Of a stretch of DNA of 64,000 bases, positions 3,629-23,689 are shown piece after piece. The DNA lies in NCBI GenBank assembly GCA_041178325.1, contig JBEGVN010000014.1, positions 12,476-76,475 on the forward strand. The letters are read 5' to 3'. The position numbers and the translations under genes were made by a program. Position 1 is the stretch's first letter; each line of letters starts with the position of its first letter. The stretch comes from Pseudomonadota bacterium. Lineage in GTDB: Bacteria > Pseudomonadota > Gammaproteobacteria > Methylococcales > Methylococcaceae. A model generated the notes under the pieces. The model worked only from the letters and a program-made list of their open reading frames with translations, did no database searches and was not told the origin of the DNA.

Positions 3629-3640
3629 CAAAATCTCGCT

Positions 3641-4416: not shown

Positions 4417-4433
4417 CTAAACGACCCGGACAG

Positions 4434-5921: not shown

Positions 5922-5939
5922 TCTACACGTGTTCTACAC
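5922..5939. promoter_or_regulatory. Direct repeat TCTACAC-gtgt-TCTACAC in the AT-rich region upstream of the FlhD-like gene
   Basis: Read directly, about 90 bp upstream of the ATG at 6031. Confidence 0.3.
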
Positions 5940-6030
5940 AAATTTCATTGGCATCACACAGAATCCACATCATTTCTCCACACAGGATGGAAATACTTGA
6001 GCCCGTTACCAACCTGATGGGAGAAACACC

Positions 6031-6369: not shown

Positions 6370-6862
6370 GCGTCATCGCAGCGTTGATCTGGCCCTTGCG
6401 CTGGTGCAACGAAAACTAAGAACGAGTCCTGCGCATGTTCTGACCGGCCTCCCGGAAGCCGAGATCCGGAGTCTTTATCGCCTGGTCCATGGCCGCTCAC
6501 CGACGTCAGGGTCGATTCCTTCGACAGGACATCTGATGACCTCACGCCGCCGGCAGGCCAAGATATCGGTCTTCATTGCCGTTTATCTGGGTCTTGCCGG
6601 GGATGAAGGAGGGCGTCATGTGGATGCGCGGATGCTGATCCGAAGCCATGACCTCTTTCAGGAACTGATCGGGGTGCGTCAGGCCGAAGAGGTCGATTTG
6701 ACCGCGGCCTGGTCAGTGCTTCGGGAATATCAAAGCGGCATTTCGCGACGACCCTGCTGCAAGGACTGTGGCGCCTGCTACATCATTACGGATACGGCCG
6801 ATGTTCCTCCATCATGTCCCTTTTGCGCCCTTCGAAGGCGATGCGCGTCCCCGAGTGTCTGA
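6350..6862 (+). CDS. FlhC-family transcriptional activator subunit (SetC/AcaC-like)
   Basis: FlhC-like N-terminus (SLERHRSVDLALALV...EIRSLYRLVHGRSP) and a four-Cys zinc site CCKDCGACYIITDTADVPPSCPFC. Confidence 0.75.
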   Translation: MAAISLERHRSVDLALALVQRKLRTSPAHVLTGLPEAEIRSLYRLVHGRSPTSGSIPSTGHLMTSRRRQAKISVFIAVYLGLAGDEGGRHVDARMLIRSHDLFQELIGVRQAEEVDLTAAWSVLREYQSGISRRPCCKDCGACYIITDTADVPPSCPFCALRRRCASPSV

Positions 6863-6892
6863 TTGATTTGATTAGCATGGCACTCAGGCTTA

Positions 6893-9214
6893 ATGTATGG
6901 GCTCCCGAACCCCCACGAGAGCCCCTTCATGCAAGCTTCAGCCCGAATCCGGATTTCAGGTCGCGACATCGAAATCTCTCATCCAGAACCCTTTGGACCG
7001 GGCGATATCGATCGTCTTCTGCATCGCGCCTTTGCCCATGCGGATACCGATTCGGTGCACCTTGAGCCGTCGATCCGGCGGTTCAAGATCCGCCTTGGGA
7101 GTAGGAACACGGATACCAAGGCCTCGCTCGCACGGCTTGCCGATCTCATGGCACAGCCATCGGTACCTGAAGAATCCTTGCCAGAGGTCCCAGGACCAAG
7201 CCCTGTCACTTTTCAGCGTTGGCGGGGAATCGTGACTTCGCTGAACCTTCAGGATCAGGCTCTGGGACAAGTGCGCGTTGGGGTGCCGCGCAAGAGTTCT
7301 GGGCGGATCCAGCGGGAATCACTTCAAAATCTTCGCGGACTTCCTGGAGTGCATCAGGTCAGAACGCGCCGCTATCCGCGGCGCATCGTCATTGGATATG
7401 ACCCCAAGGTGGATCCGACGGTCTGGGTTCGGGCGCTAGAGCGTACGCTTTACCCTTCGGTCCATGCTCTTGTCACTCCGGAATCACCAAAGATCCCGGC
7501 GCTGATGGCCAATACCAATCTCGTCCTGTGTACCACGGGCCAGTTTTTTTATCCGCCGGTCATTCCTCTCGTTTCAGGCGTTCTGCTGCTCAGCCGTATC
7601 CCGCAGTTTGCGAAGGCTGCACGTGAACTTGGGCACGGCAAGATCGGTGCGCCTTTCTATGGCAGTGTCGTTGTGGCATGTTCTGTCGCTGCCATGGCGC
7701 CCTTTGCCTCGGCACTGGCCGAATGGTTGACCTGCGTATGGGAGCGACGGGTTGGACGTTTGATTACCCGTGAATCCAAGGTGCTGATTGCTGGACTTCC
7801 TCCGGTGACCAGGCTTCCGTCACCCGGGGAGAAGCGCAAGCCCCTCACGCTGGCGTCAGGTGACCTGGTGCCGTTTGACGGGATACTCGCAAAGGGCGAA
7901 CTCCTGGTTCGGGATGGTCTTTTTATGGACCCTGCATCCTCCCCCCTGATCCGAAAGCACCCGGGTGATGCATTGATCTCCGGCTTTCAGGTGATCGGCG
8001 GGCAAGGGACGATCAAGCCCTCCGAGGATGGTCATGAGGATCGTTTGCGTTCGGTTATTCAGGTGATTGCCGAACTTCCGGTTCGTCTGACGGAAGATGA
8101 CGCTCTCAAGGGCGAGGCACGTCGCATGGGTGATTTGAGCGTCTACCCCAATCTGGCCCTGGCGGGTGTGGCCTATTCGATGGGTGGGCTGCACATGGCT
8201 GGGGCGCTGATGCATCAGGACTGGATGGCCAGCCCGATGATTGCGGCCCCGACGGAATTTTTCCGTGACCTTCGGACGGGACTTGAACATGGCGCCCTGG
8301 TGCGCACCCCGGGTGCGCTCAAGGGACTTGCGCAGACCGATGTGCTGCTGATCGAGGCCAATTATCCGGGCCTATCCGATCTGAGACCTCGTGTCATCGA
8401 CATTGAATCGGATGATAAACCCGTCTCCAGAGCCAATGCCTGGGCCTCGATTCTGGCTGACTGGGTGGGCGACGCTCGCTCTGAGGCGCTAAGGGATCTT
8501 GCGCTGGTCAGCGATAGCGCCATCGTCGAATCGAGTTTTGTCCGCTTTGAAGACGGCCAGACAGAACTTCGCATCGAGGGCCTCAAGGTGGTCCTTGAAG
8601 ATCTCGATGTCGGGGGTGAGTGGCCCTCCCTTCGTATCGCCATCGAGGGGGAACCCGTCGAGACTCTAAGGTTTGGTGCAACGGACCTCGCACGACTGGC
8701 CCGAACCTTCCAGCGTCTGCGCGCCATGGGTATTGCCACTGCGGTCTATGGTCCAGGTGCCGCTACGGTGGGTGCCGTGGTGGGCGCGGATGCCACATAT
8801 CCTGATGTTGATGCCAACACGCTCGCCAAATTCCGCAGTGAACTCAATCTCAAGGGGTATGCCTCGAGTCTGGTGGCCTCCCGTCCCCTGGATCCCGCGC
8901 TGGTGGAGGATGCCCCGGTCGTGATTGGACCTTTGAACACGCTCAAGGGCATTGAGGTCCCCACCATCCAGTTGCTGGGTGATTCCCTCGATGGGCTCCC
9001 CGAACTGGTCCTCGCAGCACGTACCCTAAGGCTTCGGGTCGGACTGGCCAGTGCCCGAACCATTCCCACCAACCTCCTTTGCATCCTCGGTGCCTTTGCA
9101 GGCACCCTGAATGGCACCATGACAACTCTCATTGCACACAGCGGAGTGTTCGGAGTCTCACTGGTTCAAGGCCGACGCATCAAGAAGTCCAAACGCAAGG
9201 GTGAGATCCTCTAG
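6893..9214 (+). CDS. P1B-type (heavy-metal) ATPase homologue with all catalytic motifs degenerate, a putative pseudo-ATPase membrane protein
   Basis: Colinear with the CopA/ZntA layout. It has an HMA-like segment without CxxC and the A-domain GDLVPFDGILAKGELLV. TGES reads DPASS, CPC reads ASP, DKTGT reads EANYP (TDVLLIEANYPGLS), TGDN reads GPGA and GDGxNDxP reads SRPLDPA. The frame is intact. Alternative ATG at 6929. Confidence 0.7.
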   Translation: MYGLPNPHESPFMQASARIRISGRDIEISHPEPFGPGDIDRLLHRAFAHADTDSVHLEPSIRRFKIRLGSRNTDTKASLARLADLMAQPSVPEESLPEVPGPSPVTFQRWRGIVTSLNLQDQALGQVRVGVPRKSSGRIQRESLQNLRGLPGVHQVRTRRYPRRIVIGYDPKVDPTVWVRALERTLYPSVHALVTPESPKIPALMANTNLVLCTTGQFFYPPVIPLVSGVLLLSRIPQFAKAARELGHGKIGAPFYGSVVVACSVAAMAPFASALAEWLTCVWERRVGRLITRESKVLIAGLPPVTRLPSPGEKRKPLTLASGDLVPFDGILAKGELLVRDGLFMDPASSPLIRKHPGDALISGFQVIGGQGTIKPSEDGHEDRLRSVIQVIAELPVRLTEDDALKGEARRMGDLSVYPNLALAGVAYSMGGLHMAGALMHQDWMASPMIAAPTEFFRDLRTGLEHGALVRTPGALKGLAQTDVLLIEANYPGLSDLRPRVIDIESDDKPVSRANAWASILADWVGDARSEALRDLALVSDSAIVESSFVRFEDGQTELRIEGLKVVLEDLDVGGEWPSLRIAIEGEPVETLRFGATDLARLARTFQRLRAMGIATAVYGPGAATVGAVVGADATYPDVDANTLAKFRSELNLKGYASSLVASRPLDPALVEDAPVVIGPLNTLKGIEVPTIQLLGDSLDGLPELVLAARTLRLRVGLASARTIPTNLLCILGAFAGTLNGTMTTLIAHSGVFGVSLVQGRRIKKSKRKGEIL

Positions 9215-12200
9215 GTTCTCTCCCTCCGTCGTTGTCCGTTATAGCTTCGCAAAAGACCCAAAAGATCGTCTCTGCCACCGGCCGCAATTTTTCGGAGCAG
9301 GGCGGCGAGAACGGGGCCCTTGGTGCCGGCCTCCTGATCCAGGGCTTCGCGTGATGGCCCAAGATCGCCGAGGCTCTTTTGATAGTCTCCGGTCACTGGA
9401 TACCCTGCAAATGACTCCAGCAGTGCGGCCTTGTAATAACGCGCCTGTGCCGGAGTCAGATCTTTGCTGACTTTCAAAGTCTCGCCCTCGATCCACCGAT
9501 GCAACTCGCTCTCAACTGCAGATGGACTCTCCTTGATCAGCTTCCGGAGGGTTTCAGATGGCGAGTCACCCCGGGATTCAGCATCCTTCAGAATCTGCCC
9601 CAATACTTCAATTCCGCTTTCCCCGAGTACCTTGAGGCGGGCGTAACTGGCTCTCAGAAAGGCGCCGCTGAGGCTATCCAAGGATTCAGCCGCGGATGTG
9701 GCGCTGGAGGCTACATCGAGGCGCGGGGAGAGTTTCTCTTGACGGTCTTCGTCGAATCGCTGTTCACTCTGGTGCTGCTGTTGCTTCCGGGCATGAAAGG
9801 CCGCATCGGCGGATTCTGCAATCCGTGCATCTCCCTGATCATTCATGTCACTCGCCCGATGGATCTGTGCCATCGTATCTGCCGCGATGTTTTCCGGTTG
9901 TTCCATGGGGTGGTCCTTGAGTGCCCACTGGACCTTCGATTGAAGGATTTCACTGTCCACCGGCATGCGAAGTGCATGCGCAGTTCTCTCAGGGGCAAGA
10001 TCTGTTGCGACATAAGGCGCATGAAAGGCTTCTCCAAGGACAGTACGACCCAGCGTCCTTGCGAGAACCGATTCTTCTTCGGATAGTGGGTGGTAGACCG
10101 GGTGGGCATGCCCTGTCATCAGCGCGAGTCCCGCTGCGGCATAGGATTGGGTTGCATTCCCAATGAGGTTTTGATGATGCCATTCGTTACCGAGTCGCTC
10201 GGCATCTCCGCGCAATCCCACCTGATCGAGCGCATGATGCAATGCTTCCAGGGTTTCTGGTTGCTGGACAATCCGATGGCTGGCTTCAAGCGCCCCGATA
10301 CGCACATCGGAACCTGACCGGTAGCTGGTCTGGGTGGTCGTCTGATACGCCCTTTCGGCCTCTATGGCTGCTTGTGCAGTGTGTCCCAATTCTCCCAAGG
10401 CATCAGAGCGAAGTCCCAGCGTTGCACTCATCCTGTGCCCCTCAGCGGCATCTTTTGCGACCGATTGGGCCAGTTCATTCTGAAAGCCATGATCCTGGGT
10501 AATCTTTTTTGAAAGATCCGCGGCAATTTCGTGCGCCCGGCCCTCACCGAGGTGAAAGCGATCCTGAAGTTGACCCTGGAGGCCAAGAGCCAGGTTATCG
10601 GGAAGCAGGCCGCCCGATGGCACACCCTGAGAGGGCCCCTGATAGCGTCCTGTCACGGCGCCTCCAAGCAGCGTTGCAAAGTCATGACCGCTAAGCCCAC
10701 TTTCCCGATATCGCTCGGCAAGATCCTCACCCGTCGCTTCCATGAACCGGTCGGTGGCACTCGATTGCGAGGCCGTTCTTTGACTGATCAACCGGTTTTG
10801 GCTTCCTTCTTCCAGCAGCGCATGGCTCTTGGCACCCTGTACACGCAGGCCTTGCATGAATGTATCGTTGCTGCGTTCGCGTTGCGAGGCCTCAGAGGCC
10901 TCGGTGTGTGCTTGATCCTGGCTCAAGCTGAAGGTGGGGAGAATACGCTCTGCGCCGGACATCGAAAGTCCTGCCAAGGGGGTATGCCGGTGACTTGATT
11001 CCATTCCGATCAGGGCAGGGGACTGCAAAAGCGCGGGGCTTGCGACCTTTTCATCAACAAAGTCGCCGCCTTGCATGCGGCCCAGAAAATGTGTTGCCGT
11101 GACAGAACCCCCATAGACCAGCATCAAGGCAATGGCCGGTGTCGCACTGGCCAGCATTCCGCCTACGGCCAGCCAGTTCTGGAGTTCCATGTCCATCTGA
11201 TAAAGACCTGCAACGGAGTCCAGCGCAAAGCGTGCCTTCGACAAGGCGGCGAATCCGCCACGCGTTGCAAGGGTAATGTAGAGATTCCCGATCGCAAGTA
11301 TCGGCATCCAGAACTGGATCCAGATCAGCATCAGCGCGTACTGGCCGCAAAGACGAATACCGCGTGCACCCAGAAGGAGGGTGAACGCCATGATGGGTGT
11401 CACGGCGTAGCTGAATCCCTCAATCCAGGTCAGCATGGGACGCACCATGCGCGCAAAGAGAGATTGCTCGGCCGCCCACTGGGTATTGCGCTGCGCAATG
11501 GCGGTTTCAACCATCGCGGCCTGCGTGGCCTTGAGGCTGTCCTGCTGACGGCCAAGCACTCCCTGTTCAAAAAGGGGGACCAAGGCTGCTGCAAGGATAA
11601 AGCGGGAGGCCTCTTGTTGTCCCTGTGTCAGGGCATCGAGGGCCGCCTGAATGGTGCCTATGGGATCTTTTGCACCCGGCCCTGACATGAAAAATCCCAG
11701 CTGCTGGACCAGCAGGGGAAACGCCTGATCGGTCACCAGATGCCGCAGGCGAGGCCAGGCATCGGTGCATGTCACGAGCAGAGGAAGGCTGCCGTCCCGT
11801 ATCTCGGTGGCATAGATCTCGGAGTCATAACGTAGGGCATCGGGGAGTCCTCCCGTATTCAGTAGGGTCGTAGCGTCAATTGCGCCAAGATCAACTCCGG
11901 TCAACGTGCAGTCCTTCACGTACTGAGTGACACTGGTGGCCACATCGCTTGTAGGTGAGGGATCAAGAGCTTTCCCGAGTGAAAGGCGGGAGAGAAGATT
12001 CCTGCGGACCTGGGTCAAGGTTTCAAGGCTCCCTGCATAGCCTTGCTGCGTCAGGGTCGGGACTGAAAATGCGGTTTCGAAAAGTACCGTCAATCCATAG
12101 CCGAGCTCTGAAATGATGGCACCGGAAACGGCAGGTCCGAGGGGGACATGGTCAACAACCCTGATCTCGCCGGTATAGGCATCTTCAATGGAAAGGGAGG

Positions 12201-12432
12201 TGGTGGGTTGAAAGAGTGCCATCCACAGAATGACCGCGCCAATAAATTCACCATAGCGCAGGGTCGGTGGGCCTGTCTCAAGGAGTCCTCGCAAGGCTTG
12301 CATGAGGATGCCAACGAGGGCACCGATACCGGCAGCGGTCCTTACATCCTGTGTCCCAAAGACCATGGCAATACTGTTGAGGATCGCGGCCAGGAAAGCG
12401 CTGTCGCCTATGGCATGGAGGGTGAGAACCAT
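9211..12432 (-). CDS. traG: F-type conjugal transfer protein TraG (TraG_N mating-pair formation/stabilisation)
   Basis: 1073 aa with a multi-TM N-terminal half (TWIEGFSYAVTPIMAFTLLLG, MLIWIQFWMPILAIGNLYI) and a long Ala/Gln/Ser-rich C-terminal half. Follows traH. Confidence 0.85.
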   Translation of the reverse strand: MVLTLHAIGDSAFLAAILNSIAMVFGTQDVRTAAGIGALVGILMQALRGLLETGPPTLRYGEFIGAVILWMALFQPTTSLSIEDAYTGEIRVVDHVPLGPAVSGAIISELGYGLTVLFETAFSVPTLTQQGYAGSLETLTQVRRNLLSRLSLGKALDPSPTSDVATSVTQYVKDCTLTGVDLGAIDATTLLNTGGLPDALRYDSEIYATEIRDGSLPLLVTCTDAWPRLRHLVTDQAFPLLVQQLGFFMSGPGAKDPIGTIQAALDALTQGQQEASRFILAAALVPLFEQGVLGRQQDSLKATQAAMVETAIAQRNTQWAAEQSLFARMVRPMLTWIEGFSYAVTPIMAFTLLLGARGIRLCGQYALMLIWIQFWMPILAIGNLYITLATRGGFAALSKARFALDSVAGLYQMDMELQNWLAVGGMLASATPAIALMLVYGGSVTATHFLGRMQGGDFVDEKVASPALLQSPALIGMESSHRHTPLAGLSMSGAERILPTFSLSQDQAHTEASEASQRERSNDTFMQGLRVQGAKSHALLEEGSQNRLISQRTASQSSATDRFMEATGEDLAERYRESGLSGHDFATLLGGAVTGRYQGPSQGVPSGGLLPDNLALGLQGQLQDRFHLGEGRAHEIAADLSKKITQDHGFQNELAQSVAKDAAEGHRMSATLGLRSDALGELGHTAQAAIEAERAYQTTTQTSYRSGSDVRIGALEASHRIVQQPETLEALHHALDQVGLRGDAERLGNEWHHQNLIGNATQSYAAAGLALMTGHAHPVYHPLSEEESVLARTLGRTVLGEAFHAPYVATDLAPERTAHALRMPVDSEILQSKVQWALKDHPMEQPENIAADTMAQIHRASDMNDQGDARIAESADAAFHARKQQQHQSEQRFDEDRQEKLSPRLDVASSATSAAESLDSLSGAFLRASYARLKVLGESGIEVLGQILKDAESRGDSPSETLRKLIKESPSAVESELHRWIEGETLKVSKDLTPAQARYYKAALLESFAGYPVTGDYQKSLGDLGPSREALDQEAGTKGPVLAALLRKIAAGGRDDLLGLLRSYNGQRRRERT

Positions 12433-13856
12433 CAGTCGCCTCCGCGTGAGGTTCCCTGTGCCCAGGGTCCCTTGATCCCATAATCCCGGCTGCGTCCGGT
12501 TTGCATTAGGGTCTGGTAACGGGTGACGAGGCTTGCAATGGTTCCCCAGCGATTCTCAAGGCTTTTTCGCTCTTCTCGCAGTTTGGAGAGGGTCTGATCC
12601 AGAGCCTCATGAATGAGCCGCTGGTAGGGGTGATCATCCAATCGGCTACTTTCTCGGGTGGTTGCGATCATCTCTTCGATGAGATCGCCGGCCACTTCGA
12701 TCGCGAGAATCGGTGCGGCTTCCCCAGCAAAATGCTGAGCAAGCCCCGGGTCCTCGCGCGCAAGATTGCGCACCAAAGCGCTCAGCGCGTGGGGAGCCTG
12801 GTCCATGAATCTGAGTTCCTCCGGGGTGAAACGACCCTGACCAGTAGCAAACTTATGAAGGATGCCCGTGCTCCCGTCAGGCCCCCCGAGGAGGGTTTCG
12901 ATGCGGGAGATAAACCCCCGCATTTCAAAGGGAACGGTTCGTGGATGGAGGCATCCCTCGAGACTGTCCTCATCACACTGATACATCATGGCAAGGGTTC
13001 CTTTGTCTTGGGGCTCTCCTCCCTGGAGAAGCTCCCGGATACCGAGCAAGGGTGGAAGACTCTGGACCGGAAGCGTATGTCCCTTGTTGCGGATCCCTTC
13101 GGTAGGGCCCTGGATGATGACGGTTCCGGTGACGCTCATGAGGGCTTCGAACCAGGCTGTGTTGCCATCGGCGCCGAGGGTTCCCCCGGCATGCTGGTGA
13201 AGAGAGCGCCAGATCAGGTTTCCGGAAACGGTTTTTTGAAGGCCTGAAGGATCTGAGTTAACCGCCCGTTCCAGAGGATCCCCTTGGGCAAAGGTGAAAC
13301 TTTCAAAGGCGTCACCCAAGCCTTTGGCTAAAGACCATTGGGACACACGACTGCGCTGCTGTGCATCCATGGCGGATATACCGTCGTTGACGATCCCCTG
13401 AGCGAGCTGGCAACTGTTGGCCAAATGCTCATTGAGGGATTGGACCTTTTTTTGAAGATCACTCATGAGACTGCCGCAATCCGGGCACATGGCATTGATT
13501 CCGAGCTGAAAGGCATAGCCGCCGGCATTCGATGCAATACTCCGAAGCAGGCCTGTGAATTCCGATTGGTTAATGAAGGAAAACGAGCCGCCATAAAGAT
13601 CGATGCCGCCGCAGCCCCCACCAAAGCTGGGAGGTGTCAGGGTGACCGGACGGGCTTGCATGATCCTGTGACGCATGACGACACTGCCGCCACTCAGGAC
13701 GCCCCGACGCTGCCCCATCTGTGCGCTCGGTTGGGTGACATTACTCATGCCCTCAAACATGCGATCCAGATCATGATCGAGGGTTGCAATGCTCACAGGC
13801 GAAATTCCCATAAGAAATATTCCGTTTAAAACCCAGGATCTCAATCTCAATCTCAT
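12432..13856 (-). CDS. traH: F-type conjugal transfer pilus assembly protein TraH
   Basis: Signal peptide plus the hallmark GGGCGGIDLYGGSFSFINQSEF. ATGA overlap with the traF stop. Confidence 0.9.
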   Translation of the reverse strand: MRLRLRSWVLNGIFLMGISPVSIATLDHDLDRMFEGMSNVTQPSAQMGQRRGVLSGGSVVMRHRIMQARPVTLTPPSFGGGCGGIDLYGGSFSFINQSEFTGLLRSIASNAGGYAFQLGINAMCPDCGSLMSDLQKKVQSLNEHLANSCQLAQGIVNDGISAMDAQQRSRVSQWSLAKGLGDAFESFTFAQGDPLERAVNSDPSGLQKTVSGNLIWRSLHQHAGGTLGADGNTAWFEALMSVTGTVIIQGPTEGIRNKGHTLPVQSLPPLLGIRELLQGGEPQDKGTLAMMYQCDEDSLEGCLHPRTVPFEMRGFISRIETLLGGPDGSTGILHKFATGQGRFTPEELRFMDQAPHALSALVRNLAREDPGLAQHFAGEAAPILAIEVAGDLIEEMIATTRESSRLDDHPYQRLIHEALDQTLSKLREERKSLENRWGTIASLVTRYQTLMQTGRSRDYGIKGPWAQGTSRGGD

Positions 13857-14662
13857 TCGGAATGCTGGTGTGATGGGATCAGGCCGGAAGCCAAGCCGGT
13901 TTCATAAAGATGCGCTTCAAGCTCCAACGCCGAGGCTGAACCTTCAAGGACAGGAAAGAGACCTTTTTGTGGAACCATCAGCAAAAAAGCGGGGGTTGCT
14001 GTCAGATGCAGCGTCTGACCCAACCCGGGATCCTTGAACAGGGTTTCGGGCGGAAGGCCCGGAAGATCGCCGCCATCCAGGCTGACGGCATAAAGGCGCA
14101 TTCCGATCCTTTGGGAGAGCTCCCCAACCAGGGGGGCCATCAGATGGCAAAAGCGGCAATCGGAACGAAACACAAAGAGGAGTCCTGCTGCCTTTGCCAT
14201 CTGGGACAAGGCATTCAAACGCGCATGATTTTCGGCCTGGTGATTCAGCGCAAGGGCGAATGGTGTTGTGGGGCGCTGCGCACGTTCATCGAGATGCGGA
14301 TCTTGAAAAACCACCGAATGGGCCATCTCAGCAAAACGTTCGGCCTTGTCGAGCAATGCTTTCTGGAGCACAAAATAGCGCCGGACATTTTCCGCTGTCG
14401 GATCATCGAGAGCCTGATCCCGAATGGTCCCAAGATGGGCACGAAACCAGGCGCTGGTCAGGGGGGTGTCCTCGGGGGTGAGGGGTAATGGGGGCACGAC
14501 AGGGGCTTTCACCGTGGGCGGCGCCTGACGCAGCAGGGGTTCAGGCGTGGTCTCCTTCCAGAACCAGCCCTGGGCCTTTTCATCGTAAAAGGGATGAGGG
14601 ATTGGTGCTGCGTGCGTCGCCCAGGGCATTGAGGAAAGGAAGATAACTATCCAAGGTTGCAT
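13853..14662 (-). CDS. traF: F-type TraF, a thioredoxin-fold pilus assembly protein that retains a CxxC motif
   Basis: GWFWKE N-terminal motif, YFVLQKALLDKA, and thioredoxin-like LLFVFRSDCRFCHLMAPLV...AVSLDG. The ATG at 14662 gives the signal peptide MQPWIVIFLSSMPWATHA. The track ORF starts at a TTG at 14704. Confidence 0.85.
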   Translation of the reverse strand: MQPWIVIFLSSMPWATHAAPIPHPFYDEKAQGWFWKETTPEPLLRQAPPTVKAPVVPPLPLTPEDTPLTSAWFRAHLGTIRDQALDDPTAENVRRYFVLQKALLDKAERFAEMAHSVVFQDPHLDERAQRPTTPFALALNHQAENHARLNALSQMAKAAGLLFVFRSDCRFCHLMAPLVGELSQRIGMRLYAVSLDGGDLPGLPPETLFKDPGLGQTLHLTATPAFLLMVPQKGLFPVLEGSASALELEAHLYETGLASGLIPSHQHSE

Positions 14663-14696
14663 GGCTTCATTGTGGCCATCAACGCAAGCTATCGCC

Positions 14697-14732
14697 CCTT
14701 TCAAGATGAGGCGAACGGGTTACCTTGAAAGG
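14697..14732. promoter_or_regulatory. Inverted repeat CCTTTCAAG-atgagGCGAACGGgtta-CCTTGAAAGG, copy 2 of the shared element, abutting the srkA stop codon
   Basis: Perfect 9-bp arms read directly. It lies between the srkA stop (14733-14735) and the traF start (14662). Confidence 0.5.
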
Positions 14733-15734
14733 TCAGGGCAGAAGGGAGAGCGGGGGCTCCAGCATCCTTTCGACTTGATTTGAAAGCTCAACGGTTCTCT
14801 CAGTCCAGTACGCAGGTGTCCCAAAATCGGGGAAGGCCCTTGGAAAAGCAGGATCTTCGGTGCGCGCTGAAAGCCATTCGCTGTAATGAATCAATCGAAG
14901 GGTCCGTAAGGGCTCAATGAGTCGTAGTTCACGCAGGTCAAAACTTTCAAAAGTGTCATAGCCCTCAATCAGTGTCATCAGGGCCATGCGACGGTCGGCT
15001 TCGTCGCCCTGAGCGAGCATCCAGAGGTCCTGTACTCGAGGGCCGATGCGGGCATCATCAAAATCGAGCAGCAGGGGTCCCTCGGAGGTTGTCAGGATGT
15101 TTCCGGGATAAGCATCGGCATGGACCCGGATGGTTGAAACCGGTCCCGTTGACTCGAAAGCTGCATCAATGGCCGAAAGGGCGCTAACAAGGGCTTCCTC
15201 ATAAGGTTTGTGGAGAGAGGTCGGAATGAGTCCGCTTTCCAGAATCCGAAGGCCAGGACGATGCCCATAGGTCAGGGGATCAACGGTCGGGCGGTGATGA
15301 AAGGGGTGTAACTTTCCCACGGCATGAATCCGAGCAATCAGACGTCCCAGGGATTCAAGGGTGTCGAGATCCTCGGTTTCAGGGGGGCGCCCCCCGATCC
15401 TGGGCGAAAGGGAAAAGCGAAAATCAGCGAAGTGAAAAAGGCTTTTGCCTTCGGCGTCTTCAAGCATGGGGGCTACCGGGATTTCGGCGGCCTGAAGCTC
15501 TTTGAGGAATTCATGCTCCTCGAGTATGGCCTCATCAGTCCAGCGACCCGGCCGGTAGAATTTGGCAATGGCAAAGCTGCCCTCATCAAGGCCTACCTGA
15601 AAGACCCGATTTTCGTAACTATTGAGCGCCATGATGCGCCCATCCGGTTGCCATCCCGCTGATTCCAGGGCATCTCCGATCAGATCCGGTGTTAGCGTTT
15701 CAAAGGGATGTGGAGGTGTGGGGATCGGGTTCAT
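14733..15734 (-). CDS. srkA: Stress response serine/threonine kinase SrkA (YihE)
   Basis: Colinear with E. coli YihE: LNSYENRVFQ, KFYRPGRWT, HADAYPGNIL, DFDDARIGPRVQDLWML, IEPLRTLRLIHY. MNPIP start at 15734; the track ORF starts at a GTG at 15785. Confidence 0.9.
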   Translation of the reverse strand: MNPIPTPPHPFETLTPDLIGDALESAGWQPDGRIMALNSYENRVFQVGLDEGSFAIAKFYRPGRWTDEAILEEHEFLKELQAAEIPVAPMLEDAEGKSLFHFADFRFSLSPRIGGRPPETEDLDTLESLGRLIARIHAVGKLHPFHHRPTVDPLTYGHRPGLRILESGLIPTSLHKPYEEALVSALSAIDAAFESTGPVSTIRVHADAYPGNILTTSEGPLLLDFDDARIGPRVQDLWMLAQGDEADRRMALMTLIEGYDTFESFDLRELRLIEPLRTLRLIHYSEWLSARTEDPAFPRAFPDFGTPAYWTERTVELSNQVERMLEPPLSLLP

Positions 15735-15865
15735 AAGGGAGACAGCCGGTGAGGGGTACCCGAGGATACTCCTTTTGACCGCCACCAGTCCCTCGATCTT
15801 TTATTGAATTTGAGGGCTTCGTTTGTGATCGGCTCGTCGGGTGAGATACCCGTGCATCGTCCCGG

Positions 15866-18709
15866 GTGCTGGCATATCATCAGAGCCATGACGCAATCCC
15901 TGTTGGAGACCCCGTGACTTCATCGCATGCCCATGCTCTTTGCAGGCATCTGGGGACGGGTGAGCGCTTGATTTTCGTGATGGTTGCCTGCCTGACACTG
16001 ATCCTGTCGCGAACGGCATTGGGGCATGAAGGGATCGTAACGGACGGCTCGGTCGGTGCGGCACCCTACCTGGGATCTGTTCATACTCTCTCGCCACCTT
16101 CAGGACCGCAATCGGTCACGGTGAGCCAATCCATGGGGTCTACCCAAGGCCAAAATCTATTTCAGAGTTTTTCTCAATTCAATATCGCGCCTGGCCAGAC
16201 TGTCACCTTTACCGAGGACAAGGTCGGCTTTATTGAAAATATCATCGCAAGAGTCACTGGTCACGAGGCTTCCCAGATCAATGGAACCCTTCGGGTCACC
16301 CCGGAAGGAAGAGCCAATTTTTATCTTTTGAACCCCAACGGTGTGCTATTTGGTCAGGGCGCCCAAATCGATGTTCCGGGCGATTTTCATGTCACCACTG
16401 CGAGCTATGTGAAATTTCAGGATGGGGCACGATACGGTACTGATCCTGTGACCAGCAAGCTATCAAGTTCCGCACCGGTGGCCTTTGGATTTGTCGGTGC
16501 GAATCCGAGTAACAACGTACTGATTGATGTCAGTGATGGTGCGACGCTTGCCACCCAACACAGACATACAGCCATCGACCTTGTGGGTGCCAATCTTTCA
16601 ATCAGCAAGGGCGCATCGTTGGTCGCAGCTCAAGAAGGGTCTGAGATTCGGCTGGTTGCATCCAAGGGGAGGCATGAAGTCAGCGTGATGAAAGATGCTT
16701 CGGGATACCTCCCTTTGCCTTATACAAAGCCCAACCGGGAGAATGCAGGCGCCATCACGCTGGATTCCGGCGCGTCCTTACTCTCAAGGTCCCCGACCGG
16801 GGGGCGTATCGGGATTTGGGGGCAATCGCTTGACCTGAGTCAGGGCTCAACGATTGGCGTCTATCATAGCGGAGACAGTGATCCGGACTCCTCCCAGGGT
16901 ATCCATGCCACCTTGAACACCCTATCCATTCGGGATGAGGGCTCCGCTGTCAGCAGAATTTTCACAATGAACGATGCCAAGGGTCACGGGGCGGATATCC
17001 ATCTGTCCGTGGGTGACCGCATTGAAATCCACAACAATATTCATTCAGCGGATTTCAACGGGATTTACTCGATCAGTCAGGGCAGCGGAGATGGGGGGAA
17101 TATTCGCATCGAAGCCGGCTCCATGGCGATGTCAGGTGGAGCCCCGTTCGGAGCCACGGCCGAAATCACTGCCGAGGCCAGAGCCGGGGGGGCTAGTGGA
17201 AATGTCGACATTCGAACGCGAGGCAGTCTTCTCATGGCGAACGATGCCTCTATTTCGGCAAAGGCCCTTGGAGCTCCGCGTGCCGGTCACCTGAAGCTTG
17301 CGATCGGCGGTGACCTGACGATACGAAACCGCTCTCTGATTCAAGATCTGGCCTTACCCTTCGAGAGTAACCCCTCCAATGGGGAGGGTGAAACCGGCGA
17401 TATCCGGGTTACAGCAAACAACATCAAAATCATTGACTTAGGCCAAAATGCCAATCCCCACGATACCGGAATCTCAAGCCGGAATGAATTTGGTTACGGG
17501 GCCGTCGGGAATATAGATGTCATTTCGAGAGGGAATATCGACATCCGGGGTGGATATGGATATGTTGCGCCCAAACAAGACGGGTCCGATGATGCGAAGA
17601 TTGTCGGAATCTCTTCATACTCGAATACGTTGTCACCAAACGTTGGCCATCTGAACGTCTGGAGCCAGGGCAAGATCACACTGCATGGCTATGGTGAGGA
17701 TGAACCTCATGATGCTTCCGGTCTTTTCCGGTTTTTAAACCCCACCGTTGAAACCGGAATCAGTTCCCTGGTCCATGAGCCGTCTGATGCTCCCCCCCCG
17801 AGTGTGCATGTTCATGCAGGTGAGGGTATTTCATTAACCCAATCGATCATTCTGGTGGGAGGTAAATTAAATCAATCGGATCAGATGCCGACTGTGCGTG
17901 TCAGTTCCGAGGGGCCCATATCGCTTCAGAGGTCCGAAATCGCGAATGCGGTCAAGGTAATGTCTCAGGATTCAAAGAACTTTGGCACTGGAGTCAGCGT
18001 CTTGGGTGGCTCGTTACTCATGCAGGACAAAAGTAACCTTTACAGTAATGTCCCAGGTTATGGCATAGATGTTCGGTCGGATGCCGGCGTCTTCATCAGT
18101 TCCAAAACGGTGAATGTGCACTATCCTTACAATCAGGATCCCCTCTATCTCCCTGATGTGGCCATGTATTACTCAGGTGACTATGGCCTTGGCAATATTT
18201 CGATTTCAGCCAAGGATAACCTGATCATCTACAACGCAAGTATTGGTAGTGAAATTACTTCCAAAAGCATCATGAATGCCCGTTTGAATTTGTCATTATC
18301 GGCCGAAAACGTCCTGATCAGTGCTGCCTTGTTGGGTTTAGGGTCCAATCAAAGCCAGTTGAATTCTCAATCCTCCAGCATCGACCTGGATTCCCAGGGT
18401 GTATTTCCTCTATTCAACGTAATTAATAACAGCTTCTATACAGATGAAAGCGGATTGATTGCGAGCATTAGGCCCAACTATCCATCAGGCCTGAACAATC
18501 GCGTCATTAAGTCCTCTGGGAATCGGATAACGGATGATTTCACAGTCAGCGGATCTCTTTTTGGGATCAGCGGCGTCTTGCCGACTCTGAGTCTTCCGGA
18601 ATTTGGATCCGAGGGTGATCTTTTGTCCTGTCAAACCTTCAAGAAGGGTGAGCTTTCCTTAACAGGCAGAGGGAGACTGACAGGCGAAACGCCTTCAGGG
18701 CTGTATTGA
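15866..18709 (+). CDS. TPS-domain (filamentous haemagglutinin N-terminal domain) exoprotein, paralogue 1. Predicted beta-helical secreted protein.
   Basis: TPS motifs QNLFQSFSQFNI and NFYLLNPNGVLFG..DVPGDFHVTTA after a signal-like MVACLTLILSRTALG. The start is uncertain (GTG 15866, ATG 15980). Confidence 0.8.
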   Translation: MLAYHQSHDAIPVGDPVTSSHAHALCRHLGTGERLIFVMVACLTLILSRTALGHEGIVTDGSVGAAPYLGSVHTLSPPSGPQSVTVSQSMGSTQGQNLFQSFSQFNIAPGQTVTFTEDKVGFIENIIARVTGHEASQINGTLRVTPEGRANFYLLNPNGVLFGQGAQIDVPGDFHVTTASYVKFQDGARYGTDPVTSKLSSSAPVAFGFVGANPSNNVLIDVSDGATLATQHRHTAIDLVGANLSISKGASLVAAQEGSEIRLVASKGRHEVSVMKDASGYLPLPYTKPNRENAGAITLDSGASLLSRSPTGGRIGIWGQSLDLSQGSTIGVYHSGDSDPDSSQGIHATLNTLSIRDEGSAVSRIFTMNDAKGHGADIHLSVGDRIEIHNNIHSADFNGIYSISQGSGDGGNIRIEAGSMAMSGGAPFGATAEITAEARAGGASGNVDIRTRGSLLMANDASISAKALGAPRAGHLKLAIGGDLTIRNRSLIQDLALPFESNPSNGEGETGDIRVTANNIKIIDLGQNANPHDTGISSRNEFGYGAVGNIDVISRGNIDIRGGYGYVAPKQDGSDDAKIVGISSYSNTLSPNVGHLNVWSQGKITLHGYGEDEPHDASGLFRFLNPTVETGISSLVHEPSDAPPPSVHVHAGEGISLTQSIILVGGKLNQSDQMPTVRVSSEGPISLQRSEIANAVKVMSQDSKNFGTGVSVLGGSLLMQDKSNLYSNVPGYGIDVRSDAGVFISSKTVNVHYPYNQDPLYLPDVAMYYSGDYGLGNISISAKDNLIIYNASIGSEITSKSIMNARLNLSLSAENVLISAALLGLGSNQSQLNSQSSSIDLDSQGVFPLFNVINNSFYTDESGLIASIRPNYPSGLNNRVIKSSGNRITDDFTVSGSLFGISGVLPTLSLPEFGSEGDLLSCQTFKKGELSLTGRGRLTGETPSGLY

Positions 18710-18795
18710 ATCGGGCAGCGATCCTGAGGTTTATCAGGGAAACGATTGCCCGAAGGGTTTTGCTAGAATCCAATTCCACCCATTAAACCTTTGAT

Positions 18796-19644
18796 ATGCC
18801 CACATTGCTTCAATTGATCTACAGGATGCCCTTGTGGCTCACCTGTAGCACTCTGATTCTTCTCTATAGCGCTGTGGCGAGCGGCCTTTTCTATCTGCTG
18901 GCTCGAAGGATTCATATAAAATTCAGAATCTCAGATGACACGAACAACGTCATCAGTGGCGTTCTTTCCACCATGGGGATTCTCTATGGTCTCCTTTTGG
19001 GATTGGTTTCCGTTGATAACTGGGACAATTTCGACAAGGCCCGCAACCTGAGTGCGACAGAAGCTGCGGCCATTTCAGCTTTTTACCGGGACGTGGCCAT
19101 TGTTCATCACCCGAGGGGCCCTGCGCTGCAGCGGGATGTTCAAAGCTACCTTCGGAAAATTATCAAGGATGAATTTCCTGCCTATAACAACGGGGATGTC
19201 CCCGCGGGAAGTTATCATCTCCTGGATGCAATTCATCGCGACCTGGTCAGTTATAACCCCGAAGGTCCTGTAGAGCTCCAGTTCTACAAGGAGGCTGTGA
19301 GCCACTTCAACAGAATGGTAGAGTTTCGGGATCTTCGCATTGAGTCTGTGGCCCATGACGGGCTTCCCGTTGTGTTCTGGTACGCGATTGTTTTAGGTTC
19401 GCTTGCCATCATCATTGTCAGCTTCTTCTTTCATATGCCGTCCTATCAGGGGCATCTCTTTCTGGTGAACTGCATCACTTTTTTTACTGCAGTCATGGTC
19501 TTTTTGATTCTTGCGGTCGACAATCCTTGGCGCGGCACCATTTCTGTCAGTTCAGGGCCTTATGAAGAAGTGCTGAATCGCACCCTTCCAGCCCTGGTTG
19601 CACCAGAGGCTCCACCAAAATCCCCTCCCGCCTCTGAACCCTAG
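18796..19644 (+). CDS. Membrane protein with paired N- and C-terminal TM helices (DUF4239/bestrophin-like architecture, tentative)
   Basis: 282 aa. TM helices at both ends flank a soluble core (AAAISAFYRDV...). Family name is from memory only. Confidence 0.55.
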   Translation: MPTLLQLIYRMPLWLTCSTLILLYSAVASGLFYLLARRIHIKFRISDDTNNVISGVLSTMGILYGLLLGLVSVDNWDNFDKARNLSATEAAAISAFYRDVAIVHHPRGPALQRDVQSYLRKIIKDEFPAYNNGDVPAGSYHLLDAIHRDLVSYNPEGPVELQFYKEAVSHFNRMVEFRDLRIESVAHDGLPVVFWYAIVLGSLAIIIVSFFFHMPSYQGHLFLVNCITFFTAVMVFLILAVDNPWRGTISVSSGPYEEVLNRTLPALVAPEAPPKSPPASEP

Positions 19645-19781
19645 CATCAGATGACGTTCAAATTCTTTTAATCAAGACGTCACCCCATCCTCGATCAGGA
19701 TGTACCGCATCAAAGATGATGCGGTGCTCTGGCACCTGTCATATCATCCCGTTTAATACGTATTGATGAGACCATGAAGCC

Positions 19782-22583
19782 ATGGGGTTTTCTCGAGAAA
19801 GTGCCGACGTGCTCATCCGGAGAGTTCACTCAGTCTTGGTGGGTTTTTTTGCGCTGCTAACAGCGGGAGCGGCAGGGGCCAATGGTGGCATCGTCATGGA
19901 CGGAACCGTGGGCACCTCGGGTTTTTATGGTGCACCGCAAATCCCTTCGGTAGTGGGTGAAAACCCAACACACGTTACTGTGTCCCAGTCCATGGGAACA
20001 ACTGTTGGTGCAAACCTCTTTCACAGTTTCTCAGAGTTCAACATTGCACGGGGACAAACGGTCCTCTTTAGCGAAGACTCCAAGGGTTTTATCGATAACG
20101 TCATTGCACGGGTTACGGGCCACGATATCTCACAAATCAATGGAACGCTTCGGGTCACGCCGGGAGGTCATGCCAACTTTTACCTCCTCAACCCCAATGG
20201 GGTAATCTTCGGCAACGGAGCCCAGATCGATGTCCCTGGGGACTTTCACGTCACCACGGCGAGTTTCCTCAAATTCAAGGACGGAGCCCAGTATGGCGCT
20301 GATCCTGTGACCAGTCGGCTCTCCAGTACTGATCCTGCTGCCTTTGGCTTTGCGCATGGTGCGAGTCACAACAACGTGATGATTGCAGTAAGCGACGGTG
20401 CCCTGCTTGCGTCGAAGGATAAGGCCATCGATTTGGTTGGGGCAAACATCACAATCGAAAAAGGAACCAAAGATTTGCCCAATATTGTAAGTCCTGACAT
20501 TCGCTTGGTCGCAGCCAAATCAGGCCATGAAGTCAGCGTGACAAAAGAAGAAGGCAATTATTTGCCGCTTCCCCATCAAACCCCAACTCGTGCGACTGCG
20601 GGTGAAATAAACCTTCTGAATGGCGGGGTGGCTTTATCCGCATCAGATTCCGGGGGAAGAATAGGTGTCTGGGGTTCATCCGTTCATTTGATGAATGGGT
20701 CTGGGTTCGAAGCATATAACATAGGATCCGGAAATCCAGGTGTATATAATGGAATTAATATAGTTTCTCGAAGTTTGTCCCTTGTGGATGAGGGTTCGCT
20801 GCGAAGCGCTATATATTCTGGCGCCATTGCTGGAGGTAATGGCTCAGATATCAATATTGCTACGGTTGGGCGTATATTAATGAAAAATAATTTAATGAGC
20901 GCCGAGAGCTCTAATATAACAACTGGTTCGGAGGAAAAGGCAACAGGAAATGCTGGAAATTTATCAATAAAAGCCGGATCCTTAGTTATGGAGGGTGGTG
21001 GCGATCATGATAGATTGGCACTGGCTGGCTCATTTTCAAAAGGCGCGGGAGCGGCTGGTGATGTATGGATACGTGTGCGTGATGATGTGTTTCTTGATCG
21101 TTTTTCCTATATAGAATCTGTTGCTTTTGGCGCTCCTCGCTCTGGAAGCGTAAGATTAAATATCGGGGGCGATCTGACTATCCGCAATGGGTCGCTCATA
21201 TTATCTGAAGCGTTTAAGCCTTCGGATGGTTCTGTCTCTTCTGGAGAGACTGGCGACATTAAGGTGTCGGCTGCTAGTATAAATATTATTCAGAGAGGCA
21301 TTTTTGGATTTCCTTACCGCGTAGGATTTTTCAGTCATAATGAAAACGACTCTGGCCGGATTGGTGGCATTGAGTTGCTGGCTAAGCATGATATAAACAT
21401 TAGGGGGCCATACGCTGATTACTTAGACGCTAAATATAAGGGAATTGTCGGTGTGGTCTCAGAATCAGCGCTAAATACCGTGTCCACGAGTAACGGAGAG
21501 ATCACTTTAAGGGCGGGGGGCAATATATCATTGCGTGGTCACGGATCCGATATACCTAGGGAATCGCCAGGATACAATAGATTCGCAAATATCGGTTCCT
21601 ACACAGGAATCTATTCATTTCTTGCAGGTGACTCTGATTCATCGCCGCCTAGTATTGATATTTCATCGAATGGAAGTATTATAATGAATCAGTCGATAAT
21701 TAGCACCTACGGCGTCATGAAAGACCCTGAAAAGGTTCCCAGTGTAAGCATTAATGCTTTAGGCCGAATATCGCTTCACCGATCGGAGATATCAGACGCC
21801 ATCTTAATTAATGAGTCTTCCAGACTAATTCCGGGTGTTGGTGTCTCGTTATCAGGGGGGTCGATATTTGTTAACGACAGAAGCACTATATTTTCAAATA
21901 TCCCGGGCCAAGGCATTAGTCTGGATGCATATAGGGATATATTTATAAGCTCGAAAACGGTTAACTCTAATTACGGCAGCAAAGAGGACGCACTCTATTC
22001 GCCTGATATTGTTCTTAATTATAATGGCACCCTTGGTTCCGGAAAGATATCGATTAACGCGGGTCAGAATTTAACTTTTTTTAATGTCTCCGCGGGGGCA
22101 ATTAATGCTTTTAAAGGCTCCATGGAAGGTCAGGGCGCTGTTAAAGATAGTGCTTCATTGCGTCTGGACGCTTCCGCCGAGAGTATATTGTTGTCTCGAA
22201 CTGATTTTGCTCTTGCTGTAAAAGGGAATGCGAGGGACTTGTCTAGTACTGATGTTACATTTAGCTCCCATGGGCTGCTTCCGCTTTTTAATGTGCTAAA
22301 GGGTCGATTCTATACAATGGAGGGTGGTCTTGACCCCAATATAATTCCAAAGGTCCCGCATGGTTTTGATAATAAAATTACCATACAGAAGAATGGTAAA
22401 AATGACGAAAATGTATCCCTTAGCGGAACTCTTTTTGGTATCAGCGGAATGTTGGCGGAACTCAGGAAGCCGGCTTTTGGTTCTCGTATTGACTACGGGG
22501 CCTGCCAGACGCTAAGTAATGGTCAGCTATCCCTCTCAGGCAAGGGCGGACTTAGGGGTGACATGGGTTACTTATTGCATTAA
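19782..22583 (+). CDS. TPS-domain exoprotein, paralogue 2. The 3' two-thirds is markedly AT-rich.
   Basis: ANLFHSFSEFNI and NFYLLNPNGVIFG..DVPGDFHVTTA. Colinear with paralogue 1 over its whole length, including the C-terminal motif. Confidence 0.85.
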   Translation: MGFSRESADVLIRRVHSVLVGFFALLTAGAAGANGGIVMDGTVGTSGFYGAPQIPSVVGENPTHVTVSQSMGTTVGANLFHSFSEFNIARGQTVLFSEDSKGFIDNVIARVTGHDISQINGTLRVTPGGHANFYLLNPNGVIFGNGAQIDVPGDFHVTTASFLKFKDGAQYGADPVTSRLSSTDPAAFGFAHGASHNNVMIAVSDGALLASKDKAIDLVGANITIEKGTKDLPNIVSPDIRLVAAKSGHEVSVTKEEGNYLPLPHQTPTRATAGEINLLNGGVALSASDSGGRIGVWGSSVHLMNGSGFEAYNIGSGNPGVYNGINIVSRSLSLVDEGSLRSAIYSGAIAGGNGSDINIATVGRILMKNNLMSAESSNITTGSEEKATGNAGNLSIKAGSLVMEGGGDHDRLALAGSFSKGAGAAGDVWIRVRDDVFLDRFSYIESVAFGAPRSGSVRLNIGGDLTIRNGSLILSEAFKPSDGSVSSGETGDIKVSAASINIIQRGIFGFPYRVGFFSHNENDSGRIGGIELLAKHDINIRGPYADYLDAKYKGIVGVVSESALNTVSTSNGEITLRAGGNISLRGHGSDIPRESPGYNRFANIGSYTGIYSFLAGDSDSSPPSIDISSNGSIIMNQSIISTYGVMKDPEKVPSVSINALGRISLHRSEISDAILINESSRLIPGVGVSLSGGSIFVNDRSTIFSNIPGQGISLDAYRDIFISSKTVNSNYGSKEDALYSPDIVLNYNGTLGSGKISINAGQNLTFFNVSAGAINAFKGSMEGQGAVKDSASLRLDASAESILLSRTDFALAVKGNARDLSSTDVTFSSHGLLPLFNVLKGRFYTMEGGLDPNIIPKVPHGFDNKITIQKNGKNDENVSLSGTLFGISGMLAELRKPAFGSRIDYGACQTLSNGQLSLSGKGGLRGDMGYLLH

Positions 22584-22678
22584 CCCTACGCTATACAACA
22601 TTCCCAAAATCGCTGAGGCGCTCACCTCCTCAACTAAGGCAAGACCCTTCTGAAACGGTGTCGTATACCGTTGCAATC

Positions 22679-23689
22679 TCAGCTAGCCGACAACAAGTTT
22701 TCTCGTAGTTTTCGGATCACGGCTTCGATAAAACCTTGCGGCAACTCCGCATCGACCGGAAGAAACCAGTCGTCCTCCCGCGCAAATGCCATGCACTTCA
22801 CGGCATCCTTTTCGGTCATCAGAAGGGGTTTACCTTTTGCAAAGGCCAAGTCCTTTGCTGTGTAGACATGATGGTCCGGAAAGGGGTGAGCCTCGATCTC
22901 AAGCCCGGCGGCTTCCAGTTGACGGAAAAACCGATCTGGATTGCCAATGCCGGCCATCGCATGGATCTTCTGCCCCTTGAAGTGCTCCAGCGATCGTTTC
23001 ATGCAATATTGGCGAAGATTGGTCAGTCTTGAACCCCTGAGGCTCATGCGAACCCCCTCATCGGTCTCGCCGCCGTTATAGACGACGAAGTCCACTTGAT
23101 CGAGTCGCTCGATGGGTTCTCTCAAGGGGCCCGCCGGGAGAAGATGGCCATTGCCAAACCCCCTGGTACCATCGACGACCGCAATCTCAAGATCTCGTTC
23201 CAGCTCATGGTGCTGAAGTCCATCATCGGCGATCAGGATATCGACGCCATGGCGTGCGATGAGAGCATGTCCTGCATCGACTCGCTTGGGGAAAATAAAG
23301 ACCGGGCATCCGGTTTTTCGCGCCATCATGACCGGTTCATCGCCTGCGATTCTCGGCGAGGTATTGATGGTGACCTCCATGGGGCGACGCGGTGTGATGC
23401 CTCCATATCCGCGACTGAGAATGCCCGGTCGGTAGCCGCGCTCCTTGAGTCGCTGAGCCAGCCAGATCGTCAAGGGAGTTTTGCCGGTGCCACCCACCGT
23501 GATATTGCCGACGACGATGACAGGGACAGGGAGCGCACGCGATGCGATGCGACCAGTTTCATAGGCTTCCCGGACCAAACCGACGCCCTGACCATAGGCT
23601 TTGCCGAAAGGAATCAGGAGCGGATTGGGTTGATCGCGTTCGTACCAGAGGTGCTGGGTCAGTCGTTGTACCCATTGGTGGACGTACAT
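22679..23689 (-). CDS. lpxK: Tetraacyldisaccharide 4'-kinase
   Basis: VPVIVVGNITVGGTGKTPLTIWLA, GILSRGYGG, DDGLQH. Confidence 0.9.
   Translation of the reverse strand: MYVHQWVQRLTQHLWYERDQPNPLLIPFGKAYGQGVGLVREAYETGRIASRALPVPVIVVGNITVGGTGKTPLTIWLAQRLKERGYRPGILSRGYGGITPRRPMEVTINTSPRIAGDEPVMMARKTGCPVFIFPKRVDAGHALIARHGVDILIADDGLQHHELERDLEIAVVDGTRGFGNGHLLPAGPLREPIERLDQVDFVVYNGGETDEGVRMSLRGSRLTNLRQYCMKRSLEHFKGQKIHAMAGIGNPDRFFRQLEAAGLEIEAHPFPDHHVYTAKDLAFAKGKPLLMTEKDAVKCMAFAREDDWFLPVDAELPQGFIEAVIRKLRENLLSAS

Follow-up and report, generated by a model that had tools for sequence, protein, structure and literature searches.

Two TpsA-type exoproteins of a Methylococcaceae bacterium belong to a CHAT-linked subfamily and lie at a site where sister species hold tpsB

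A 64,000-nucleotide stretch of a genome assigned to the Methylococcaceae (contig JBEGVN010000014.1; called the window below) carries two genes, TPS1 and TPS2, for TpsA-type exoproteins of two-partner secretion (TPS), with no gene for a TpsB transporter beside them. We report here that both proteins belong to a large TpsA subfamily, the ancestral gene set of which is TpsB, a secreted CHAT protein and TpsA. On the simplest reading of the locus, they stand without an adjacent tpsB because a tpsB-containing block, still held at this site by sister species, was lost from it. It appears fairly likely that TPS1 and TPS2 are exported through a TpsB whose gene lies at another place in the genome. [quoted passage not shown] TpsA genes that lack a neighbouring tpsB are known, and explaining them requires no new secretion route.

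TPS1 occupies positions 15866..18709 of the forward strand (947 residues if counted from the farthest GTG), with its TPS domain at residues 83-284. TPS2, on the same strand at 19782..22583, encodes 933 residues, with a signal peptide at about residues 1-35 and a TPS domain at residues 58-287. Both proteins matched PF05860 far above its curated cut-off of 33.5 bits (TPS1, E 5e-32, 112 bits; TPS2, E 1e-34, 121 bits), and TIGR01901 as well (79 and 76 bits, respectively, against a cut-off of 29.1; E 2e-22 for TPS1). The TPS-domain motifs named in the original prediction read NLFQSFSQFNI and LLNPNGVLFG in TPS1, and NLFHSFSEFNI and LLNPNGVIFG in TPS2. In a BLASTP alignment, the two proteins are 45% identical over 902 residues and colinear up to their C-termini; the colinearity had been stated in the original prediction, which described them as paralogues. 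The N-terminus of TPS2 (MGFSRESADVLIRRVHSVLVGFFALLTAGAAGANG/GIV) reads as a Sec signal peptide, and residues 7-27 form a helix in the structural model. TPS1 would have an extended signal peptide ending in ...SRTALG/HEG if translation began at the GTG at 15914, which, judging from the sequence, is the likelier start. The two TPS genes also have in common a short motif of similar sequence, CTGGCA...CATATCATC, immediately ahead of or at their starts (15868-15881 and 19730-19750), which may be a regulatory site of both. Since the first copy falls inside the longest TPS1 frame, it supports a later TPS1 start codon.

TPS2 was modelled with AlphaFold2 on an alignment of 44 sequences; the model had a predicted local distance difference test score (pLDDT) of 84 and a predicted template-modeling score of 0.85, and was all-beta from residue 37 to residue 875. 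In the same model residues 886-933 had a pLDDT below 50, and the last ~48 residues are predicted to be disordered. The best Foldseek matches of this model in the PDB were exclusively TpsA proteins, namely full-length HxuA of Haemophilus influenzae (E 6e-8), followed by EtpA, HMW1, HpmA and FHA, while a sequence search of the PDB returned HxuA as the only match (E 1e-11, via the TPS domain). The TPS2 passenger is predicted by the model to be a right-handed beta-helix of the TpsA type, a point that the original prediction had proposed to test by structure prediction. HxuA resembles TPS2 in its length of ~900 residues and in its beta-helix, although the two are just 12% identical. A length of ~940 residues, which had been considered short in comparison with FHA/CdiA-type TpsA proteins, proved to be a normal TpsA size; HxuA is a protein of 96 kDa (PMC5422565), and the subfamily spans 627-2133 residues.

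The TPS domain was the sole Pfam match in TPS1 and TPS2, and no toxin domain was detected, which agrees with the earlier remark that a toxin/immunity module could not be recognised. A CdiA-type toxin was considered for TPS2 and rejected. No VENN-type boundary, toxin domain or immunity gene was found; the polymorphism of TPS2 is not mirrored in the adjacent gene; and the modelled beta structure runs to about residue 875, to be followed by a short, disordered and conserved tail.

This tail, which is the most conserved stretch outside the TPS domain although it is predicted to be disordered, belongs to a C-terminal module of ~75 residues that is present in both TPS proteins. The module ends in the pattern C-x(n)-S-[LF]-x(2,3)-G-[RK]-G-G-[LV], with one invariant Cys. 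In TPS1 (18485..18706, forward strand) the module carries the motif C-QTFKKGELSLT-G-R-G-R-L and the sole Cys of the mature protein (alignment A4). In TPS2 (22359..22580, forward strand) the invariant residues are Cys908, G920 and G922 (alignments A1 and A4), and the mature protein again has a single Cys. The module Cys is the sole cysteine of a mature protein of 700-1000 residues in 28 of 44 family members, and the module lies 9-90 residues from the C-terminal end in every member, whether the protein has 627 or 1909 residues. A profile of the module, searched against 1.84 billion proteins, matched 10,119 cluster representatives at E <=1e-3 and 4,395 at 1e-10, nearly always at the C-terminal end. 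Among nine long matches, seven have an N-terminal TPS domain, and no Pfam family covers the module in any of the nine; nor did a sequence search with the module find a relative in the PDB. One protein, P0377 (1314 residues), combines in a single polypeptide a TPS domain (23-268), the module (637-709), a POTRA_2 domain (809-886) and a ShlB barrel (952-1273), and represents either a true fusion of TpsA with TpsB or two genes merged in the gene call.

The usual partners of the module were examined at 80 genome loci of relatives. Within the fetched flanks, a ShlB-type TpsB was found at 44 loci and a CHAT gene at 52. When the count was restricted to the 26 loci flanked by at least 7 kb on either side, the figures were 20 for TpsB, 23 for CHAT and two for neither. 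In the nearest clade, with 47% identity over the N-terminal part, the genes form a co-directional operon in the order TpsB-CHAT-CHASE2-X-TPS (L099-L103), where X is a protein of ~295 residues, called X295 below. As read from the sequences, the CHAT protein starts with a signal-peptide-like segment and contains the His/Cys motifs HIASHG and LSACHT, the CHASE2 protein is stand-alone with C-terminal membrane segments, and X295 has a signal peptide; X295 has no Pfam or NCBIfam match. No curated family was found for the module or for the four-gene set, as Pfam and NCBIfam scans gave matches to generic domains only, and a full-text literature search found no paper treating a CHAT-linked TPS gene set. 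The CHAT-linked TPS module is apparently widespread and undescribed. In addition to the catalytic Cys at ~670-673, the CHAT proteins of L105, L089 and L114 all have a Cys at 376/377; it is a speculation that this residue pairs with the invariant Cys of the TpsA tail.

None of these partners is encoded in the window. Pfam scans of 33 open reading frames, most of those of at least 300 residues, found no ShlB, POTRA or Omp85 domain in the 64 kb, and hidden Markov models for TpsB (built from 62 sequences), CHAT, CHASE2 and X295 had no match among all window frames of at least 70 residues, in line with the earlier statement that no TpsB gene is present. The two TPS genes flank a gene for a Bestrophin-like inner-membrane protein (PF14023, formerly DUF4239; 18796..19644, forward strand), and the locus is anchored on both sides by genes on the reverse strand, namely an APH-family kinase gene on the left (14733..15785; PF01636, E 1e-32) and lpxK on the right (22679..23689; PF02606, E 6e-109). 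Between the TPS2 stop and the lpxK stop lie just 95 bp (22584..22678). It is here that sister species carry ~6.5 kb with tpsB, CHAT, CHASE2 and X295, and no remnant of these four genes was recognisable in the spacer.

Three lineages with different contents at this site were compared. In the window's species, represented by the window and more than 15 further assemblies, the APH gene is followed by TPS1, the Bestrophin-like gene and TPS2, all directed toward the oppositely oriented lpxK, without the block. In lineage A (L001, L105), the Bestrophin-like gene and a TPS gene (956 residues) run toward the opposing genes X295, CHASE2, CHAT, TpsB and lpxK; the contigs of this lineage stop within or just upstream of the Bestrophin-like gene. 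In lineage B (L089-L096, L106, L107, L112), TraH, TraF and APH genes precede a Bestrophin-like gene, which faces the same opposing block and lpxK with no TPS gene between. LpxK of the window is 89.8-89.9% identical to that of the two sister species, and the values among the three lineages are 88.8-89.9%. A B-like contig of a metagenome-assembled genome (MAG), L008, with APH and Bestrophin-like proteins 98.5% and 96.8% identical to those of lineage B, does have a TPS gene after the Bestrophin-like gene (L008 1060-2645), whereas L089 lacks it (16600-18390). The TPS gene has thus been gained or lost even within one lineage. In L089 and L008, from sister species, no counterpart of TPS1 separates APH from the Bestrophin-like gene.

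In a tree of TPS domains, TPS1, the lineage-A protein and TPS2 (P0001, P0006 and P0002/P0005) fall in one clade (support 96/90), within which TPS2 is nearest to the syntenic lineage-A protein. The simplest reading is that the ancestor had APH, the Bestrophin-like gene and a TPS gene facing the X295-CHASE2-CHAT-TpsB block and lpxK; that the window's species lost the 6.5-kb four-gene block and acquired a further TPS copy on the APH side of the Bestrophin-like gene; and that most of lineage B lost the TPS gene. By its own terms, the original prediction would be refuted by a dedicated tpsB adjacent to the genes in other strains, with the present arrangement a recent deletion. A dedicated tpsB does exist at the same site in two sister species, which in substance is the case foreseen. 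The loss, however, is not recent at the strain level, as all assemblies of the window's species lack the block. The cluster of the lineage-A TpsB (P0142) also contains two partial proteins, P0412 and P0413 (130 and 287 residues; DCY52_08160 and DCY52_08150), from one 16.4-kb contig of a Methylococcaceae MAG, which may represent a broken tpsB or scaffold gaps.

Conspecific assemblies differ little in the genes around the TPS genes (dS, the synonymous divergence, of 0.05 for the Bestrophin-like gene and 0.07 for lpxK; a ratio of nonsynonymous to synonymous divergence, dN/dS, of <=0.03). TPS2 shows a three-part pattern against the conspecific L002 and L004. Residues 1-250 have a dS of 0.10 and a dN/dS of 0.20; residues 251-900 are just 32-62% identical, with a saturated dS of 1.6 and a low G+C content; and the last 36 residues have a dN/dS of 0.08. 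The variable cassette corresponds to positions 20532..22481 of the forward strand (~residues 251-900), where G+C is 0.38-0.51. In run X4, sequencing depth fell from ~14 to ~5 over this variable part alone, the window's allele accounting for ~40% of the depth. Both conserved ends of TPS2 are under purifying selection, while its middle is swapped between strains, as expected of an exposed surface protein. From the three-part pattern, the ends would serve as conserved handles, and the exposed beta-helix is replaced by recombination. CdiA/CdiB systems and the meningococcal TpsA proteins with exchangeable 3' ends (PMC3848433) are similar in that recombination inside tpsA generates strong polymorphism between strains. 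In contact-dependent inhibition, however, it is a C-terminal toxin, linked to an immunity gene, that varies, whereas TPS2 varies in its central beta-helix and has a conserved C-terminus.

A source of TpsB outside the locus was sought among TpsB homologues. The search gave the lineage B cluster at 100% identity, lineage A at 89% and a next cluster at 80%. The last (L104, L114-L120) is one population, 99.5-99.9% identical in DNA in 8 samples, where TpsB-CHAT-CHASE2-X is preceded by an abhydrolase gene and a gene of 114 codons, and followed by LysR, carbonic anhydrase and PEP carboxylase genes; no TPS gene was found beside this block by tblastn. The population occurs in four samples that contain the window haplotype (3300043449, SRR36525688, SRR29999170 and SRR29492090), and also in the same series of runs; the samples that gave lineages A and B are different ones. 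A block without passenger would complement passengers without a block, and the L089 and L114 types show that unlinked arrangements persist in the clade, as both keep intact blocks without an adjacent TPS gene. That the L114-type block lies in the same genome as the window is possible, with the odds somewhat against it. A metagenome scan with the TpsB alignment yielded 8 loci, none from window-haplotype samples, and is uninformative here, since it also missed the L114 contig of sample 3300043449, which is evidently outside the collection.

Several observations weigh against export of TPS1 and TPS2 by a distant TpsB. A third TpsB cluster at ~89% identity, as expected of an orthologue from the window's species, was not found in the homologue search. 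The L114-type block is about twice as diverged from lineages A and B as these are from each other (TpsB, 80% vs. 89%; CHAT, 57% vs. 78%). Its tetranucleotide correlation with the window is 0.84, compared with 0.91-0.96 for equal-sized pieces of the window and 0.92-0.96 for A and B sequences, and the G+C of its flanks is 0.51 vs. 0.55 in the window, so that the block may belong to a co-occurring relative. TPS1, which is 96% identical to its copy in a conspecific MAG, has a dN/dS of 0.38-0.47, i.e. a constraint relaxed to ~0.4 from the 0.02-0.03 of neighbouring genes. Finally, the evidence for transcription consists of assembled metatranscriptome contigs, in which DNA may be present. Such contigs, 95-100% identical to the window, cover TPS1 at 15913-16563 and 17750-18500; one spans the TPS1 stop and the start of the Bestrophin-like gene (18637-18872), and others cover the latter gene and TPS2 at its 5' end. 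Depths of the contigs over the three genes resemble those over lpxK, and their sources are several rivers and lakes.

Together with the missing block in each assembly of the species, the lack of an orthologue-level TpsB cluster, the poor compositional fit of the lone candidate block and the relaxed TPS1 favor a different explanation, in which a compatible TpsB is gone and the genes are transcribed without export of their products, these being leftovers of the lost module in slow decay, or proteins with a periplasmic role. We regard this as unlikely. Both frames of ~940 codons are intact in more than 15 assemblies, the ends that would contact the partner are the most constrained parts of TPS2 while its middle is actively exchanged, and transcription of the genes is seen in several rivers and lakes. 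Export through a TpsB from another genomic site remains the more likely reading.

The gene between TPS1 and TPS2 offers another conceivable route. Its product was correctly described as a four-transmembrane protein; it matched PF14023 over profile positions 2-231 of 232 (E 6e-51; 174 bits vs. a cut-off of 32), and four hydrophobic segments are seen in the sequence. One might suppose that this Bestrophin-like protein, co-transcribed with TPS1, aids export independently of TpsB, or is a dedicated immunity or signalling partner. The gene adjoins TPS genes in all lineages of the group, and an RNA contig crosses its junction with TPS1. In addition, two other PF14023 paralogues, distant both from the window's protein and from one another (19-28% identity), are found next to another TPS gene (L005 12373-13164) and upstream of the L114-type TpsB block (L115 498-1286; L116 82-870). 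Three mutually distant paralogues beside three TPS-module loci (the window type, L005 and L115/L116) make a looser functional link possible. Nonetheless, an inner-membrane protein of four segments cannot stand in for an outer-membrane Omp85 barrel, nor does the gene take the place of TpsB, as loci with the full block (L105, L089) have it as well, and sister species keep it at this site whether or not they have TPS genes. An allele-specific immunity protein was also rejected, as the protein is 99.6-100% identical, with a dN/dS of <=0.03, between strains that differ in TPS2, and 100% identical where the TPS2 passengers are only ~40% identical. The co-occurrence of this TpsA subtype with DUF4239-like genes, which the original prediction had proposed to analyse, does not extend beyond this group: PF14023-like genes were found at 3 of 80 subfamily loci, from two MAGs, and at none of the five-gene operons L099-L103. 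A literature search on the function of DUF4239/PF14023 returned nothing relevant. An export or partner role of the Bestrophin-like protein thus appears very improbable.

The chance that a chimeric contig joins the TpsA genes to lpxK and so hides a tpsB block is negligible: the window does come from a metagenome-derived assembly and relatives with the block do exist, but the TPS1-Bestrophin-TPS2-lpxK order or its junctions were recovered, from many samples, in over 15 independent assemblies (L002-L004, L084-L086, L088, L121-L130), single contigs of uniform depth span the region in DNA runs X1 and X2, where the junctions show neither joints nor loose ends, and block-bearing organisms are just 72-81% identical in DNA. 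An apparent TPS1 frameshift in the conspecific MAG L004 proved to be only a scaffold gap, a run of N.

Under export by a distant TpsB, the following steps may be envisaged. Sec would carry TPS1 and TPS2 to the periplasmic side, where the TPS domain would dock on the POTRA domains of a ShlB-type TpsB from another genomic site. The passenger would then thread outward and fold as a beta-helix on the cell surface, where adhesion or a surface layer are candidate functions. The disordered C-terminal module, with its single Cys and its G-[RK]-G-G, would emerge last and is probably kept in the periplasm as an anchor, a CHAT cleavage site, or both. Other caspase-like proteases cut after Arg or Lys, and G-[RK]-G-G would suit such cutting.

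The proposed role of the module is by analogy with the anchors of HMW1 and HxuA and with the cleavage of CdrA by LapG. HxuA likewise has an unordered C-terminal tail, thought to be a periplasmic anchor (PMC5422565). The anchor of HxuA and HMW1, however, is closed by an intramolecular disulfide between two Cys, whereas the window family has one invariant Cys, and its module has no PDB sequence relative. CdrA/CdrB with LapG of Pseudomonas aeruginosa, where a periplasmic C-terminal tail holds the TpsA adhesin until a regulated periplasmic cysteine protease cuts it (PMC5422565), appears to be the closest analogy for a TpsA with a secreted CHAT and a CHASE2 protein. However, LapG is transglutaminase-like and is controlled by LapD and cyclic di-GMP, while the usual protease of the window family is a caspase-like CHAT whose cleavage of the tail is only proposed, and the window itself has no protease gene. 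The known orphan TpsA systems (PMC10449530) share with the window an intact TPS domain without an adjacent tpsB, and several paralogues with similar TPS domains in one organism. They differ in that the window subfamily has the extra conserved C-terminal module and, usually, a CHAT protease, and that its transporter in trans is here a proposal.

Beyond the APH gene, which also neighbors the locus in L089-L093 and L008, the left side of the window contains F-type/MOBH conjugation genes (TraF, TraH, TraG_N, FlhC-like, MobI, TraI_2 and a TraD-type coupling protein). A frame of 773 codons in this conjugative element (6893-9214) had no Pfam match at E 1e-3. TraF and TraH beside the APH kinase (window 1-14704) also occur in the sister L089 (18444-21011), at a DNA identity of only 72-76%, which means that the conjugative element is, at this end, old or repeatedly targeted rather than recently inserted. 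To the right, lpxK is followed by a GST gene and then by efflux genes. Promoter and terminator scans of the locus gave sites no commoner than in shuffled sequence, and a search for flanking repeats or recombination sites around the TPS genes revealed nothing beyond the homology of the paralogues. The runs that bear the window are all freshwater or river metagenomes, and the nearest public genome is an uncultured "Methylococcus sp." MAG.

With ~10,000 protein clusters that carry the module, and with genes that nearly always adjoin a secreted caspase-like CHAT and a TpsB, the subfamily extends far beyond this locus. We tentatively suggest, as a possibility short of an even chance, that TpsB, a periplasmic CHAT and TpsA, joined in this clade by CHASE2 and the ~295-residue protein, make up an undescribed and very widespread form of regulated surface display, in which the tail tether would be cut by CHAT at the Cys/G-[RK]-G-G under a CHASE2 sensor, a switch like that of LapG and LapD made from other parts. 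The window's species would then have a split version, its machinery being elsewhere or lost, and Bestrophin-like paralogues may be a further component. The three sister lineages, which hold complete, passenger-less and machinery-less versions of one locus, provide a ready comparison for the role of each part. The swapping of the beta-helix at the strain level suggests that phages, grazers or neighbors exert selection on abundant freshwater methanotrophs.

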